Source: an archaeon (lineage in GTDB: Archaea; Iainarchaeota; Iainarchaeia; Iainarchaeales; CSSED10-239). From it: a stretch of 32,000 bases of DNA. A program made the position numbers and the translations under genes. Numbering within the stretch: position 1 is the first letter of the stretch; each line of letters opens with the position of its first letter. A model generated the notes under the pieces. The model worked only from the letters and a program-made list of their open reading frames with translations. It searched no databases and had not been told where the DNA came from. Location of the stretch: NCBI GenBank assembly GCA_035390665.1, contig DAOOUC010000006.1, positions 1-32,000 of the forward strand, read 5' to 3'. Shown piece by piece: positions 7,105 to 21,945 of the stretch.

Positions 7105-7176
7105 GCAACTATAGTCTAGCGGTTAGGATCTCAGCCTTCCAAGCTGATGAGCCGGGTTCGAATCCCGGTAGTTGCA
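7105..7176 (+). tRNA. tRNA-Gly (anticodon UCC)
   Basis: Manual cloverleaf: acceptor GCAACTA/TAGTTGC, anticodon stem TCAGC/GCTGA with loop CTTCCAA, T-arm CCGGG-TTCGAAT-CCCGG. No encoded CCA. T-run follows. Confidence 0.85.
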
Positions 7177-15006: not shown

Positions 15007-16502
15007 AATTCCAGCTGATCCTGCTGGTGGATACTGCTATTAGAGTTTGACTAAGACATGCAAGTTTGAAAGTCTCGGCCATGAGAGACTTTGGCAGACG
15101 GCTCAGTAACGCGTGGTCAACCTACCTTTCTGATAAGTTAATCTTGGGAAACTGAGGATAATGCTTAATAGAAAAACAAATCTGGAATGATTGTTTTTTC
15201 AAAGGTCTTGCACTCATGCGTGTAAGATGCGGAAAGATGGGACTGCGTCAGATTAGGCTGTTGGCAGGGTAACTGCCTACCAAACCGAAGATCTGTACGG
15301 GCCTTGAGAGAGGGTGCCCGGAGAAGGAAACTGAGATAAGGTTCCTAGCCCTACGGGGTGCAGCAGTCGCGAAACTTTTACAATGCGGGAAACCGTGATA
15401 GAGAGACTCTAAGTGCCAGCAAAAACTGGCTTTTATATAGCTTAGATAGCTATGTGAATAAGGGGGGGGCAATATGCGTGCCAGCCGCCGCGGTAATACG
15501 CAATCCTCGAGTGGTATCCAGCTTTATTTGGCTTAAAGCGTGTGTAGCTGGTTTATTAAGTCTTTTGTGAAAGCAGTGAGCTCAACTTATTGAATTGCAA
15601 AAGATACTGGTAGGCTAGAGATAGGGAGACGTCTGGGGTATTCCTAGAGTAGGAGTAGAATCTTAAGATACTAGGAAGACCACCTGTGGCGAAGGCGCCA
15701 GACGAGAACTAGTCTGACAGTGAGACACGAAAGCTGGGGGCGCAACCCGGATTAGATACCCGGTTAGTCCCAGCCGTAAACGATGCGAATTAGGTGTTGG
15801 GTTAACTACGAGTTAACTCAGGGCCGAAGGGAAACCATTAAATTCGCCGCCTGGGGAGTACAGTCGCAAGGCAGAAACTTAATGGAATTGGCGGGGGTGC
15901 ACTACAAGGGGTGGATGCTGCGGTTTAATTGGATGAAACGCCAGATATTTTACCAGAACAGACAGCAAGATGATGGTCAGTCTAAAGGGCTTACCTGATG
16001 CGCTGAGAGGTGCTGTATGGCCGTCGCCAGCTCGTACTGTGAAGCTTCCTGTTAACTCAGGTAACGGGCGAGACCCATGTTATTAGTTGCTACTTTCTTT
16101 AGTGATAAGGAGAGGCACTCTAATAAGACTGCATTGGTAACAATGAGGAAGGAATGGGCGAAGGCAGGTCTGTATAGCCCGATTGCTCTGGGCAACACGC
16201 GGCATACAATGACTAGGACAATGAGTCTCTAACCCGAAAGGGGGTGGCAATCTCAGAAACCTAGCCGAAGTTCGGATTGTGGGTTGCAACTCACCCACAT
16301 GAAGCTGGAATCCCCAGTAATCGCGTGTCACTATCGCGCGGTGAATATGTCCCTGCGCCTTGCACACACCGCCCATCAAGCCAGTTGAGTAGAGTGTGGA
16401 TGAACTCTAGCCTATTACAGGTTAAAGTAATTCTACATTTTGCGAGACGGACTAAGTTGTAACAAGGTGTCCGTAGGGGAACCTGCGGACGGATCACCTC
16501 CT
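15007..16502 (+). rRNA. rrs: 16S ribosomal RNA (archaeal type)
   Basis: 5' AATTCCAGCTGATCCTGCTGGTGG (cf. ATTCCGGTTGATCCTGCCGGAGG). GTGCCAGCCGCCGCGGTAATAC, GGATTAGATACCC, GCACACACCGCCC. 3' GTAACAAGGT...GGATCACCTCCT. About 1.5 kb. Ends are good to about +/-5 nt. Confidence 0.95.
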
Positions 16503-16674
16503 ATATACAAATTAAATTTGTGTGTACTATTAAGCAAGAAACATAAAATTTGTTTAGCTTTATGAATTTTCCTAACGCCCCACAAAATAAAAACTTTTTT
16601 TATTTTTTAATCGTTAAATTTTAATCTTACTATCAGACCATATTCTTTTAAACACTATGGTAGTTCTTTTAATT

Positions 16675-18300
16675 ATGAAATTAAAAGCATTATCTCCAAT
16701 AATAGCAACAATTCTTTTAGTAGTAGTTGCAGTAATTCTTATAACAATTATTCTAACTTGGGGAAAAGAATTTTCAACAAGCAGCTTAAATAAAACAAAC
16801 AATTTTGGAGATTTAAAAGCATCAGATGCAACAAATTTCATTTATCCAAAATCTGCACAAAATGGAATAATGCAATTTACTTATTCTCCACCAAGTCAAA
16901 TAACAGAAGACATAAATATCACACACTATCGTGTGCTTAATATTACAGAGATGACTGAACCAATTGCTTTAGAAGAACCTACAATTTTAACAAACACAAA
17001 TATTTTAGAACTTCCTTGTCTTTATGAATACAGCACAATAACACCAGATCTTACAATACAACTTATCACAGCAGAAAATACATACATTAATATAAAAACA
17101 AAAGACCCTGGAATGGTTTGTTCTCCTGGAGGAACAGGAACAGAAGCTGATCCAATTATCATTTGTGATGCAGAAGATTTAAACAATATAAGAAATGATT
17201 TAGATGCAAATTATTCTTTAGGAAAAGATATTGATTTACAATGCTTTTCAAGAAGAGATGAAAATGGTTGGGAACCTATCGGAAATACCGGTAGTGGAAA
17301 TTATTTTACGGGATCATTAAATGGTAATAATCATATAATCAATAATTTATATATCAATAGACCTGCAACAGATATTGTTGGATTATTTGGGATTATTAAT
17401 GGAGAACTTGATAATATTGGATTAACCGACGTAAATATAACTGGGGGACATATAACTGCTGGATTAGTGGGAGATTATGAAACCTCAGGCACTTTAATTT
17501 TAAATAATAGTTATGTTACTGGAAATATTTCAGGAAATTATATTGTTGGAGGTTTGGTGGGATATAATGAAGCCTATATTGATAATTGCTATTTTTCAGG
17601 AAACATTATAGATACTAATGCAGTCGGGTATTGTATTGGTGGATTAATAGGTATGCAAAATTGGACTAACATATCTAATAGTTATTCTACAGGCACAATA
17701 ACAGTAACTTCACCATCTAGTCAAACTGGCGGATTAGTAGGATATGCCGATGGTAATATCTCTAATTGTTATTCTACAGCAAATGTAATAGGGCAGGATT
17801 ATGTCGGAGGATTAGTGGGTTACTATTATTTTAATACCATTTCGTCTAGTTATGCTACCGGAGATGTTAATGGAAAAAAATATGTAGGTGGGTTTGCGGG
17901 CTATAATGATGGTTCAGATTCTGCTGCTGGTACTTTAAATATTTCTAATAGTTATTCTCTTGGAGATGTAACTAGAATTTCTGGTTTAGATCAAAATATT
18001 GGAGGGTTTGTAGGATTTAATAAAAAAGGAGCAATTATAAATTCTTATTCTACGGGTTCAGTTTCAGGGAACAGTTGGACGCCAACAGATAAAGGCTTTG
18101 TCGGGGCAATAACTACTGGTGGCAATTATGCAGACACAAATAATTTTTATGATACTACAATATCTTTACAAACTTCCACAGCAGGTAATGCTGTTGCAAA
18201 GACTACAGCACAAATGAAAACTCAAAGTACTTTCTCTGGATGGGATTTTTCAACAGTTTGGAATATTACAGAAGGAGTTACTTATCCTTTCTTAAGATAA
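16675..18300 (+). CDS. Surface protein: archaeal class-III (type IV pilin-like) signal peptide + GLUG-motif repeat domain
   Basis: MKLKA|LSPIIATILLVVVAVIL matches the archaeal pilin/flagellin N-terminal motif (K-A/G then LSPxIATxLL). The central part reads GTGTEADPIIICDAEDLNNIRNDL..Y.LGKDIDL...WEPIG. About 8 repeats of (V)GGLVGY..x..I.NSY(S/A)TG follow. The alternative start 16657 adds 6 aa. Confidence 0.75.
   Translation: MKLKALSPIIATILLVVVAVILITIILTWGKEFSTSSLNKTNNFGDLKASDATNFIYPKSAQNGIMQFTYSPPSQITEDINITHYRVLNITEMTEPIALEEPTILTNTNILELPCLYEYSTITPDLTIQLITAENTYINIKTKDPGMVCSPGGTGTEADPIIICDAEDLNNIRNDLDANYSLGKDIDLQCFSRRDENGWEPIGNTGSGNYFTGSLNGNNHIINNLYINRPATDIVGLFGIINGELDNIGLTDVNITGGHITAGLVGDYETSGTLILNNSYVTGNISGNYIVGGLVGYNEAYIDNCYFSGNIIDTNAVGYCIGGLIGMQNWTNISNSYSTGTITVTSPSSQTGGLVGYADGNISNCYSTANVIGQDYVGGLVGYYYFNTISSSYATGDVNGKKYVGGFAGYNDGSDSAAGTLNISNSYSLGDVTRISGLDQNIGGFVGFNKKGAIINSYSTGSVSGNSWTPTDKGFVGAITTGGNYADTNNFYDTTISLQTSTAGNAVAKTTAQMKTQSTFSGWDFSTVWNITEGVTYPFLR
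17374..18115 (+). repeat. Intragenic tandem array (~8 units, ~28-32 codons each) of GLUG-type repeats
   Basis: Recurring GGLVGY / GGLIGM / GGFAGY / GGFVGF cores, each followed by I(S/D)N(S/C)Y(S/A/F)(T/L/S)G. Confidence 0.7.
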
Positions 18301-18366
18301 TTAAAATAAACATTATTTATTGGACAAATATCAATTTATAATAATTTCTTTAACTAATCTATCTAT

Positions 18367-18438
18367 GGGCTTCTAGTTCAATGGTAGAATATCTCCTTCG
18401 CATGGAGAAGGTTGCGAGTTCGAGTCTCGCGAAGTCCA
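18367..18438 (+). tRNA. tRNA-Ala (anticodon CGC)
   Basis: Acceptor GGGCTTC/GAAGTCC with G3:U70, anticodon stem TCTCC/GGAGA with loop TTCGCAT, T-arm GCGAG-TTCGAGT-CTCGC. TATA (TTTATAATAA) lies about 30 nt upstream. Confidence 0.85.
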
Positions 18439-18575
18439 TGAGAGCCGGTTTCGGTCGTGCTAAACAAATCGCATCTGTGATTTCTTGGCATCCAGAAAAC
18501 TTATAGTTTTCTTGAGCTCGCGCCCAATGGTGTCGGTTCGTGCGCAATGGATTTCGCGGTTATCCGCAATGATTA
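18439..18575 (-). ncRNA. GC-rich element abutting the tRNA-Ala(CGC) 3' end (copy B; inverted and rearranged relative to 7029-7104). The transcribed strand is unknown.
   Basis: Read on the minus strand it contains GCGGATAACCGCGAAATCCATTGCGCACGAACC, which matches 7056-7088 at 26/33 positions. It also contains TGCGATTTGTTTAG (cf. 7029-7043) and CGAAACCGGCTCT (12/13 vs 7092-7104). Confidence 0.4.
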
Positions 18576-18591
18576 ATTTATATTTATTTCT
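18571..18591 (+). promoter_or_regulatory. Promoter (TATA TTTATATTTA) for tRNA-Ala(AGC)
   Basis: GATTAATTTATATTTATTTCT recurs at 18695-18715 with one mismatch. The TATA box ends 24 nt before the tRNA 5' end. Confidence 0.5.
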
Positions 18592-18609
18592 CTGGTTAAT
18601 TATATTAAA

Positions 18610-18681
18610 GGGCTTCTGGCTCAACGGTAGAGCACTTCCCTAGCACGGAAGGGGTTGCGAGTTCGAATCTCGCGGAGTCCA
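18610..18681 (+). tRNA. tRNA-Ala (anticodon AGC)
   Basis: Acceptor GGGCTTC/GGAGTCC with G3:U70, D stem GCTC/GAGC, anticodon stem CTTCC/GGAAG with loop C-T-A-G-C-A-C, T-arm GCGAG-TTCGAAT-CTCGC. T-run follows. Confidence 0.8.
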
Positions 18682-18694
18682 CTTTTAAAAAAAA

Positions 18695-18715
18695 GATTCA
18701 TTTATATTTATTTCT
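18695..18715 (+). promoter_or_regulatory. Promoter (TATA TTTATATTTA) for tRNA-Ala(UGC)
   Basis: GATTCATTTATATTTATTTCT is the second copy of the 21-nt promoter block. Confidence 0.45.
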
Positions 18716-18765
18716 TTAATTATATATATTAGTAATCAAGCAATTTTTGTTTTAAATTCTTAGAT

Positions 18766-18837
18766 GGGCTCCTGGCTCAATGGTAGAGTACTTCCCTTGC
18801 ACGGAAGGGGTTGCGAGTTCGAGTCTCGCGGAGTCCA
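18766..18837 (+). tRNA. tRNA-Ala (anticodon UGC)
   Basis: Acceptor GGGCTCC/GGAGTCC with G3:U70, anticodon loop CTTGCAC. It differs from the AGC copy at only 5 of 72 positions. Followed by the hairpin GCGTTTTTCTT-TC-AAGAAACACGC. Confidence 0.88.
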
Positions 18838-18945: not shown

Positions 18946-19170
18946 ATGCCTGTAATTAAACCAAAGCAAGTAAAAAGGCCAGCAAAAAGAATTGCTCCTA
19001 AAACTTTAGAAAATATGAGAAAAAAAACTGCAATTATGACAGATTTAAAAAAGTTAGTAGATAATTTAGGGAAACCAAATCCGGAATTACAAAAAAGATT
19101 GGACGAAAATGCAATAAGAAATAATAGAGTTCCAAGAAACGGACTAAAATTAAGACAATCTAAGAAGTGA
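18946..19170 (+). CDS. Small basic hypothetical protein (74 aa)
   Basis: ORF with a TATA-like CTTTATAAATT about 30 nt upstream. Lys/Arg-rich, no recognisable motif. Confidence 0.45.
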   Translation: MPVIKPKQVKRPAKRIAPKTLENMRKKTAIMTDLKKLVDNLGKPNPELQKRLDENAIRNNRVPRNGLKLRQSKK

Positions 19171-20190: not shown

Positions 20191-20809
20191 ATATTTTTTC
20201 TAATCTTTTTATAGATCTTTTTAAATTAATTCTGGCTTTTTTTTCATATTTTTTTCTATAGAAATCAGTATTATAAATATTTGATTTTTGTAAAAAGTAA
20301 AGTAATACTTTTATTCTTCCATCTTTGTATTTTTCTAACGGAACCCAATAATATTCTTTTCTAATATTATTTTCATATTTATCAAATTCTTTTTTGGATT
20401 GCCCAAAAATACACAAGTCAATATCTTGTAATAATCTTTCTTCCTTTTTTCTAGATGTTTTCTGATGTTTTGTAGAAAGTATTAATGATGTCGTTTTATT
20501 TATTAATTTATTAGATAATTTTGCTTTTTTTAAAACTTTTACAAGATATTTTGCAGACATTTCTTCGTTATCATTATCTTTTGTATCGTAGATTATATCG
20601 TGATACCAAATAGCAAGTTCAATTAAATCAAAATCATATTTGTCTTTAGTTTTTTTAAAATTATCTAATTCTTTTAAACACATTTTTATATGTGATAAGT
20701 TATGATAATATCTTTTTTTGGAATAAAGTGTATTTAAATTATTAAATTCAATAATTGGATCACTTTTCGCATTAATTTGCTTCCATAACTTAATAAATTT
20801 TGATTTCAT
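20189..20809 (-). CDS. HD-superfamily metal-dependent phosphohydrolase (COG4339-like)
   Basis: YHNLSHIKMCL ... AIWYHDIIYD fits the H...HD pattern of this family. Confidence 0.6.
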   Translation of the reverse strand: MKSKFIKLWKQINAKSDPIIEFNNLNTLYSKKRYYHNLSHIKMCLKELDNFKKTKDKYDFDLIELAIWYHDIIYDTKDNDNEEMSAKYLVKVLKKAKLSNKLINKTTSLILSTKHQKTSRKKEERLLQDIDLCIFGQSKKEFDKYENNIRKEYYWVPLEKYKDGRIKVLLYFLQKSNIYNTDFYRKKYEKKARINLKRSIKRLEKI

Positions 20810-21945
20810 TTTAGATTTAATTCTTTTATTATATTGTCGATTATTTTATTTAGAACTTCTTTATTTTTATTAAATTCTTCAGAATTATCAAAAATCCACA
20901 ATTTTCCGTAATTATTTTTTACTATTATTTCTTCTAAATTATTTTTCTTTTGTATATAGTCAAATTGGCTATTTAATCTTCTATCTATCTGTTCACTAGT
21001 TAGTTTTCTAGAGAATAGTCTTTGTTTTTGAATATCTTTATCTACTTTAACAACTAATACATTATTATTACAAAGATATGTAAGATTAGATTCTGCAATT
21101 AATGCAGCATTAATTATTATGAGTCCTTTTTTACCATATATTTCTTTTCTTAATCTTACTAATATTGGAGTATACATTATTTCATTTAATTGCTTTAATT
21201 TTTCATTATTATTAAATACAATTTCTCCAAGAATTTTGCGATCTATTGTTCCATCAGATTTCTTTATATTTTCTCCAAAAGTTTTAATTAATTGATTTCT
21301 GATTTTCTCATATTTTTCATCTTTTAATTCAGAGAGAATCTTGTGCCCCAAATGATCTAATTCAATATTGTGTGCCTCTATTCCTTTTTCTTTACATAGT
21401 TCTAAAATTTGTTCACAAACAAAAGATTTCCCACTTCCAATTTCTCCAGTTACTCCTATAATAAACTGATTAGATAATTTTCTTTCAATCTCTTGCTTAA
21501 CATTTAAAGGTACATATTCATGTACAAATCCTTGTTCTTTCTGAATTCCTTTTACTACACTTGAACTTACATGAGCAAGTTCTGGTCTTGCAAAAAGAAT
21601 AAAAGTATCAATACCTAATTTTTGACTATCTCCTACTTGATGTAAAATATTTTCATAATCAAAATCAGCAGAATTTCTTACACCTTTAACTATAACATCT
21701 ATGTCATTTTCGTAAGCATAATCCACTAAAAGTCCAGAAAAAGAGACTACTTTTACATTATTTAAATCAATTAAGGATTTTTTAGCAAGAGATAGTCTTT
21801 CTTCTAGAGTAAACAAATAATTCTTACTGGGATTTACTCCAATTCCAACAACGACTTTATCAAAAACTTTAGAAGCTCTCTTAATTATGTCAATATGTCC
21901 AAAAGTAATTGGATCTCCAGAAAATGCATACATTGCTGTTGTCAT
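20806..21945 (-). CDS. coaDE: Bifunctional bacterial-type phosphopantetheine adenylyltransferase (CoaD) / dephospho-CoA kinase (CoaE) fusion
   Basis: N-terminal half: FSGDPITFGHIDIIKRA, NPSKNYLFTLEER, GLLVDYA, VKGVRNSADFDYE, SSSVVK (CoaD). C-terminal half: IGVTGEIGSGKS P-loop and CoaE-like remainder. The stop overlaps the HD gene start by 4 nt. Confidence 0.8.
   Translation of the reverse strand: MTTAMYAFSGDPITFGHIDIIKRASKVFDKVVVGIGVNPSKNYLFTLEERLSLAKKSLIDLNNVKVVSFSGLLVDYAYENDIDVIVKGVRNSADFDYENILHQVGDSQKLGIDTFILFARPELAHVSSSVVKGIQKEQGFVHEYVPLNVKQEIERKLSNQFIIGVTGEIGSGKSFVCEQILELCKEKGIEAHNIELDHLGHKILSELKDEKYEKIRNQLIKTFGENIKKSDGTIDRKILGEIVFNNNEKLKQLNEIMYTPILVRLRKEIYGKKGLIIINAALIAESNLTYLCNNNVLVVKVDKDIQKQRLFSRKLTSEQIDRRLNSQFDYIQKKNNLEEIIVKNNYGKLWIFDNSEEFNKNKEVLNKIIDNIIKELNLK

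Follow-up and report, generated by a model that had tools for sequence, protein, structure and literature searches.

According to reviews, Archaea lack every ANN anticodon (PMC8007984); 3 of 10,517 archaeal tRNAs have been counted as A34, and a strict co-occurrence of A34 with TadA/ADAT has been argued (bioRxiv 10.64898/2026.05.15.725136). A survey of 167 archaeal genomes recovered only single-genome gains, such as the tRNA-Leu(AAG) of Ferroplasma, which was read as a G-to-A change (PMC6000648). No paper on A34 tRNAs in DPANN archaea was found in the literature outside subscription journals. A tandem cluster of tRNA-Ala genes with a middle copy bearing the anticodon AGC, in an Iainarchaeota-like DPANN archaeon, raises the questions of whether such a gene is genuine, how it arose, and how its A34 reads the alanine codons. 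The window that was analyzed comprises 32,000 nucleotides (positions 1 to 32,000 of contig DAOOUC010000006.1), and the host genome (G000) is 848 kb in size with 28% GC and is 86% complete. Its assignment to an Iainarchaeota-like lineage follows from two of its proteins, whose closest named homologues bear the label Candidatus Iainarchaeum.

The tRNA-Ala cluster and its conservation

The features of the locus, in window coordinates, are as follows.

15008..16502, + strand: archaeal 16S rRNA gene, with the Ala cluster as its downstream spacer tRNA
16657..18300, + strand: GLUG-repeat protein gene (Pfam PF07581), outside the decoding feature
18335..18363, + strand: degenerate copy of a TATA-like motif 5' of the CGC gene (four-species alignment; putative promoter)
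18367..18438, + strand: tRNA-Ala(CGC) (ARAGORN and Rfam; G3:U70), duplicate of the UGC gene
18441..18572, − strand: insertion of a dispersed GC-rich hairpin repeat in the CGC-AGC spacer
18577..18605, + strand: TATA-like motif (TTTATATTTATTTC...) 5' of the AGC gene, its core invariant in four species (candidate promoter)
18610..18681, + strand: tRNA-Ala(AGC) (ARAGORN and Rfam; A34 at 18642, G3:U70, A73)
18701..18729, + strand: TATA-like motif 5' of the UGC gene (four-species alignment; presumptive promoter)
18766..18837, + strand: tRNA-Ala(UGC) (ARAGORN and Rfam), the ancestral 16S-linked gene

ARAGORN and Rfam agree with the initial annotation that three tandem tRNA-Ala genes with the anticodons CGC, AGC, and UGC are present, with Rfam scores of 62.6-65.9 bits where the gathering threshold is 29. 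The G3:U70 pair that had been claimed for all three is present in each, together with A73, and the reported divergence of the AGC and UGC genes was exact at 5 of 72 positions (6, 16, 24, 33, and 58), wobble base included. The base at 18642 is A, the anticodon loop of the AGC gene is CU-AGC-AC, and folding of this gene yields a clean cloverleaf with conserved D and T loops and an anticodon loop of 7 nt. Over 9 distinct Ala tRNA sequences, 189 of 189 stem cells are paired and 9 pairs show compensatory change. With its cloverleaf, G3:U70, A73, and an AlaRS encoded in the genome, the gene has the structural and identity features of a canonical tRNA-Ala. Each of the three genes has its own upstream copy of the TATA-like motif, and these copies are kept in four species while the spacers have diverged. 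The 16S gene is unlinked from the 23S gene, a motif of which lies on contig C3.

The gene order CGC-AGC-UGC is common to G000 and three other species of the genus (G002, G003, and G007). For the Ala(AGC) gene, identity to the G000 copy is complete in G007 and 96% in G002 and G003, and the CGC gene is unchanged in G003 and G007. The AGC gene also stands letter for letter, with flanks that are 99.4% identical, in L118, which belongs to an independent assembly of this species, and 7 more metagenome contigs from the clade carry it (L129, L132, L136, L139, L140, L143, and L152). That the AGC gene might be a sequencing or assembly error, or a pseudogene, merits consideration since A34 calls from single archaeal genomes are rare and often doubtful, as the count cited above indicates. 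However, the gene recurs in four species and eight further contigs, its stems are intact with compensatory change, and its upstream motif is conserved, such that this explanation has next to no probability. In particular, the misread base at 18642 that the initial annotation had allowed for is ruled out by the same-species assembly, the three other species, and the further contigs, and the intact folds together with this recurrence uphold the A34 gene as genuine. The AGC gene is thus real, conserved, and against the stated rule on archaeal ANN anticodons. A search of 185,579 species genomes with one exact pattern of the Ala(AGC) gene returned only 7 matches, comprising four in this family, one contig labelled as Woesearchaeota, and two tRNA arrays. 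Within the limits of that one pattern, this type of Ala(AGC) gene is rare and clustered. Ala(AGC) genes also occur in dense, phage-like tRNA arrays of other bins and metagenome contigs (L027, L032, L123, L126, and L149) and in the unplaced low-GC contigs L135 and L147.

The GLUG gene between the 16S gene and the tRNA cluster is a strain-level insertion: it is missing in L118, where the CGC gene begins 209 nt past the 16S end. A short stretch following the Ala cluster (~18950-19165) is also missing in L118; the 16S-tRNA locus takes strain-level insertions. The hairpin repeat is missing from the CGC-AGC spacer of G002 and G003. Its core, CGAAACCGGCT, is present in ~25 copies in G000, one of them just upstream of a tRNA-Gly gene at 7105, and several copies abut the 5' ends of tRNA genes (Gly, Asn, Ser, and Leu). 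The repeat resembles a REP-like or miniature mobile element. Elsewhere in the window, a bacterial-type CoaD-CoaE fusion (CTP_transf_like + CoaE) is encoded at 20806-21945 on the − strand.

Triplication of a 16S-linked tRNA-Ala(UGC) gene

A single tRNA-Ala(UGC) gene lies 160-290 nt past the 16S end in eight relatives (G005, G009, G012, G014, G015, G019, G020, and G021) and 1.1 kb past it in a ninth (G013). No second Ala gene was found in these nine genomes, each of which has a single Ala 3' end; they include G012 (one contig, 94% complete) and G015 (two contigs). In G003, G007, and L118, the trio occupies the position of this lone UGC gene. With the wobble base masked, the AGC genes show 1-4 differences from the UGC genes of the clade, and the CGC, AGC, and UGC genes group with the UGC gene of G014 at a bootstrap of 95 in a 72-nt tree that is weak in detail. 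These data show that the trio is a triplication, in the ancestor of the clade, of the 16S-linked UGC gene together with its upstream TATA-like motif. Since the nine relatives show only a UGC gene and since the motif was triplicated as part of the unit, A34 derives from U34 and not from G34. The initial annotation regarded the CGC gene as an oddity, but C34 isoacceptors are absent in just 14-40 of 167 archaeal genomes (PMC6000648), and what is notable about this gene is that it too was re-made by duplication.

A recent duplication with a switch of anticodon had also been proposed. The duplication of a UGC copy and the switch are borne out, but the timing is not. In a species tree of seven proteins (G001 left out), the trio is found on both of the deepest branches of a fully supported seven-genome clade across which RpoA' identity is ~85%, indicating that the event was not recent; the diverged spacers likewise speak against a young age. 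The other three members of that clade (G004, G006, and G008) have an unassembled Ala locus, and UGC is the only Ala gene seen in G005 and G009, the sister pair. In the other main branch of the family, the AGC gene of G010 groups with the UGC and CGC genes of its own genome (bootstrap 75), which are at separate loci, and this AGC gene probably represents a second, separate origin in another genus.

It could also be envisaged that the AGC gene arose from an ancestral GGC gene by a G-to-A change and that its body was later homogenized with that of the UGC gene by gene conversion. A G-to-A change of this kind has been proposed for Ferroplasma Leu(AAG). The bodies of the three genes do mix within G002, a sign of conversion. 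Further, the only GGC gene of the family, that of G011 (at least 13 differences from every other Ala gene, wobble base masked), is situated ~775 nt downstream of the UGC gene in the same 16S locus. However, the AGC gene has the anticodon stem of the UGC gene rather than that of the G011 GGC gene, the upstream motif was triplicated as well, and the immediate sisters, G005 and G009, have UGC alone after the 16S gene. Derivation from GGC is quite improbable, and it alters the origin of the gene but not the mechanism of decoding.

The host tRNA set and the search for a wobble deaminase

ARAGORN identified 44 tRNAs in G000, to which one missed Arg(CCG) is to be added. The assembled genome shows no tRNA-Ala(GGC): none of Ala(GGC), Pro(GGG), and Leu(GAG) is among the tRNA calls of this 86% complete assembly, and a T-arm scan for hidden intron-containing or missed copies of the three returned Arg(CCG) alone. 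Because the assembly is 86% complete, a GGC gene or a deaminase gene could be unassembled. The tRNA tables of G000, G003, and G012 likewise contain no GGG, GGC, or GAG, and G003 (five contigs) has the same tRNA pattern as G000. G34 is kept in the Val, Thr, Gly, Arg, Ser, and Ile boxes of G000. Two points escaped the initial annotation. One is that the genome has a second A34 tRNA, Leu(AAG) with A37 (L236:253-334; G000 C2:56452-56533), which is fixed across the family: it is present in 18 of 22 family genomes and in all five genera, and Leu(GAG) was found in 0 of the 22. Among the other families of the order for which this tRNA was seen, the majority have GAG, and Leu(AAG) also occurs in families f23 (G059 and G060) and f3 (G023 and G164). 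The other is that a single UGC tRNA seems to suffice for all four Ala codons in sister genomes.

The absence of an A34 deaminase, which the initial annotation gave as the norm for Archaea, is matched by the search of this genome for TadA/ADAT. The TadA model NF008113 reached 9 bits against a cut-off of 150, and the ADAR/ADAT1 domain (PF02137) had no match. Two proteins in G000 carry PF00383. One is an ordinary kinase-fused dCMP deaminase encoded beside folA and thyA. The other is a paralogue of 147 aa with a C-A-E motif (G000 C2:16141-16584; L025:1432-1875, − strand), encoded head-to-head with an L7Ae-S28e-L24e-aIF5B cluster. Its Glu and PCxxC are intact, and a His-to-Cys change of the zinc-binding residue is invariant. 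It matches dCMP deaminases best, both in sequence and in predicted fold (TM 0.80, with TadA reaching ~0.63 at most), and, judging by sequence, both PF00383 proteins are dCMP-deaminase-like. The paralogue is present in all four trio genomes (G000, G002, G003, and G007) and is confined to genus g1 and G011. It is missing from G010 in spite of the Ala(AGC) and Leu(AAG) genes there, and likewise from genera g4 and g5 with their Leu(AAG); conversely, G005 and G009 encode it, and no A34 tRNA turned up in either. PF00383 genes are lacking altogether in G012 (94% complete, in one contig) and G015, both of which retain Leu(AAG). Given these mismatched distributions, no candidate tracks A34. TadA-like matches in G005 and G009 and deaminases adjoining the Ser(ACU) genes of G130 and G147 were also rejected, as they are not co-distributed with A34 tRNAs; by their motifs they are presumably guanine-deaminase-like and fungal-type cytosine-deaminase-like proteins.

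These results bear on whether A34 is converted to inosine by an unrecognized archaeal enzyme, for which the C-A-E protein is the sole candidate found. The idea draws on the modification of every eukaryotic A34 tRNA and of the Leu(AAG) of some bacteria, on the status of the C-A-E protein as an extra paralogue besides the ordinary dCMP deaminase, on its intact Glu and PCxxC residues, invariant His-to-Cys change, and adjoining translation genes, and on its presence in the four genomes with the trio. Nevertheless, the paralogue does not co-occur with A34 (G010, g4, and g5 versus G005 and G009), and its motifs and modeled fold point to a dCMP deaminase. Moreover, family f10 keeps a split-box Ser(ACU), in which inosine would misread the Arg codon AGA. 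Conversion to inosine is therefore unlikely, and the specific proposal that wobble inosine is produced in these DPANN archaea by a novel enzyme, such as the C-A-E paralogue recruited from a dCMP deaminase, is rather improbable; if true, Archaea would gain their first I34 system, and A34 editing would have been invented independently. Since no enzyme for A34-to-inosine conversion was found, A34 is probably unmodified.

Reading of the alanine box and A34 tRNAs elsewhere

By analogy with systems that have been characterized, the AGC gene probably encodes a functional, selected tRNA-Ala with an unmodified A34, and, given the conserved upstream motif and the conservation of the gene itself, it may be expressed. 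In most sequenced members of the family, within the limits of their assemblies, the Ala box is served by one 16S-linked UGC tRNA and the Pro box by one UGG tRNA. GGC and CGC would have been lost earlier, with U34 covering the strong, GC-first Ala and Pro boxes. The unit of upstream motif and UGC gene was triplicated, and the change of one copy to CGC and of another to AGC gave back the usual three-tRNA archaeal set with A in place of G. The choice of U-to-A over U-to-G may reflect AT-biased mutation in a genome of 28% GC. G3:U70 is the identity element for AlaRS and is independent of the anticodon. AlaRS would charge the AGC tRNA via this pair, and the unmodified A34 would read GCU and GCC almost equally by two-out-of-three pairing, allowing the AGC tRNA to stand in for the lost GGC tRNA. 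The same tolerance would account for Leu(AAG) throughout the family and, elsewhere in the order, for the Ser(AGA), Thr(AGU), and Ser(ACU) genes of other lineages.

Most unmodified A34 tRNAs favor U3 by about tenfold or more, but for Ala in E. coli A34 did not discriminate between U and C and two-out-of-three pairing was measured, on an orthogonal tRNA body rather than this tRNA (PMC11066159). ANN tRNAs with native backbones were functional and not severely harmful (bioRxiv 10.64898/2026.05.15.725136). Together these observations indicate that an unmodified AGC tRNA can cover both GCU and GCC (2986 and 568 codons in G000) in place of the missing GGC tRNA. The ratio of GCY to GCR is lower in AGC genomes than in UGC-only genomes, kin that are not independent, and GCC is not depleted relative to other boxes. 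A role of A34 as a booster of GCU reading found no support, as GCU is not enriched in AGC genomes. CUC is depleted, as weak reading of C3 by an unmodified A34 in Leu would predict, but the depletion is seen in outgroup G053 as well, which has GAG.

An auxiliary role should also be weighed, in which the AGC tRNA is dispensable and reads GCU only, GCC being read by the UGC tRNA through four-way wobble of U34. Both GCU and GCC are in use in sister genomes in which UGC was the only Ala tRNA found, UGG alone is available for 2245 CCU and 225 CCC codons in the Pro box of G000, and the roughly tenfold preference of most unmodified A34 tRNAs for U3 would fit such a division of labor. However, Ala is among the exceptions that do not discriminate between U and C, the AGC gene is nearly unchanged across the clade, and AGC genomes show no enrichment of GCU, making this role very unlikely. 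The genome encodes Elp3, so U34 may be modified, and four-way reading by the lone UGC tRNA of the sisters is less obvious for that reason. G012 (L073:5026-5099), a single contig that is 94% complete, has a lone UGC tRNA for Ala and a lone UGG tRNA for Pro and yet encodes Elp3, a set that suggests four-way reading by U34 in an archaeon. UGG is alone for Pro in G003 as well. Ala and Pro, where one U34 tRNA per box is left in this family, are both strong boxes, which fits the logic of two-out-of-three pairing.

Among known systems, the AGC gene most likely works most like the Mycoplasma tRNA-Thr(AGU), for which reading of U- and C-ending codons has been shown (PMC11066159). That tRNA and the yeast mitochondrial tRNA-Arg(ACG) combine A34, a four-fold box, a small AT-rich genome, a U34 tRNA alongside, and the absence of a matching deaminase (PMC11066159), and the locus examined here shows the same traits, namely a reduced AT-rich genome (848 kb, 28% GC), a four-fold box, a U34 partner, and no deaminase found. 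It differs in being archaeal, in serving the Ala box, in its origin by triplication of an rRNA-linked gene, and in that its unmodified state is inferred. The tRNA-Leu(AAG) and tRNA-Thr(AGU) of Lactobacillales are similar in being clade-wide, in the missing G34 isoacceptor, and in the AT-rich setting; however, most bacteria with such tRNAs encode TadA, some modify Leu(AAG), and the change has been read as G34A (bioRxiv 10.64898/2026.05.15.725136). The change at the present locus is U34A, and the search for TadA was negative. The Leu(AAG) gene of Ferroplasma acidarmanus and other archaeal ANN genes of sporadic occurrence (PMC6000648) share an archaeal A34 and the absence of a G34 isoacceptor, but these are single-genome gains and none has been reported for Ala, in contrast to the clade-fixed genes and the two A34 tRNAs per genome described here. 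Eukaryotic tRNA-Ala(IGC), made by ADAT2/ADAT3, likewise has the gene anticodon AGC, no GGC, and UGC and CGC alongside; unlike in that system, no ADAT/TadA was found here, Val, Thr, Arg, Ser, Gly, and Ile keep G34, and the gene originated independently, from a local UGC copy. Of the hallmarks of TadA/ADAT-dependent I34, the 86% complete genome has an A34 gene without a G34 isoacceptor, but neither an encoded TadA or ADAT2-3 nor a deaminase co-occurring with A34 was found.

Other A34 tRNAs occur in the order. A split-box tRNA-Ser(ACU), an anticodon that reviews list as universally missing, is present in 20 of 38 genomes of family f10 (e.g., at L058:2362-2446, L059:2474-2557, L070:1906-1990, and L071:1584-1669) and is an extra copy near Ser(GCU) in 4 of 4 cases checked. 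Ser(AGA) with a UGA-like body was found in three genomes of the host's family (G013, G016, and G019), Thr(AGU) in G060 (L072:1474-1546), and His(AUG) in G008 (L066:720-793). A34 tRNAs are fixed in whole archaeal lineages with no TadA/ADAT found, and several arose separately within one order (Ala, Leu, Ser, Thr, and even the split-box Ser(ACU)). Two questions become testable: whether an unmodified A34 is really selected against, and whether an A34 gene can be fixed before any deaminase, a step needed towards the eukaryotic I34 system. The Ala locus further exemplifies a tRNA set that shrinks to one gene per box and is then rebuilt from an rRNA-linked copy.

Several minor observations were made on these tRNAs and on the host set. 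Several A34 tRNAs that arose separately have C33 where U33 is usual, namely those of G010 (L048:1501-1572), L132 (1330-1401), a Woesearchaeota-labelled contig (L030:2720-2791), and the His(AUG) of G008. A short AlaRS (583 aa; L235:2846-4597, − strand) that has no C-terminal domain is the form of the g1+g3 branch, the enzyme of the family's other branch being ~900 aa long; a tie to the triplication was rejected because the short form spans the whole g1+g3 branch, UGC-only genomes included. The tRNA-Arg(CCG) missed by ARAGORN (L103:5317-5545, − strand, on G000 C3) has an insertion of ~157 nt in its variable region. A tRNA-Ile(UAU) (G000 C2:38875-38950) is present along with only two CAU tRNAs, and there are two distinct His(GUG) genes (G000 C2:85920 and C3:86519); both arrangements are conserved in G003 and G012.
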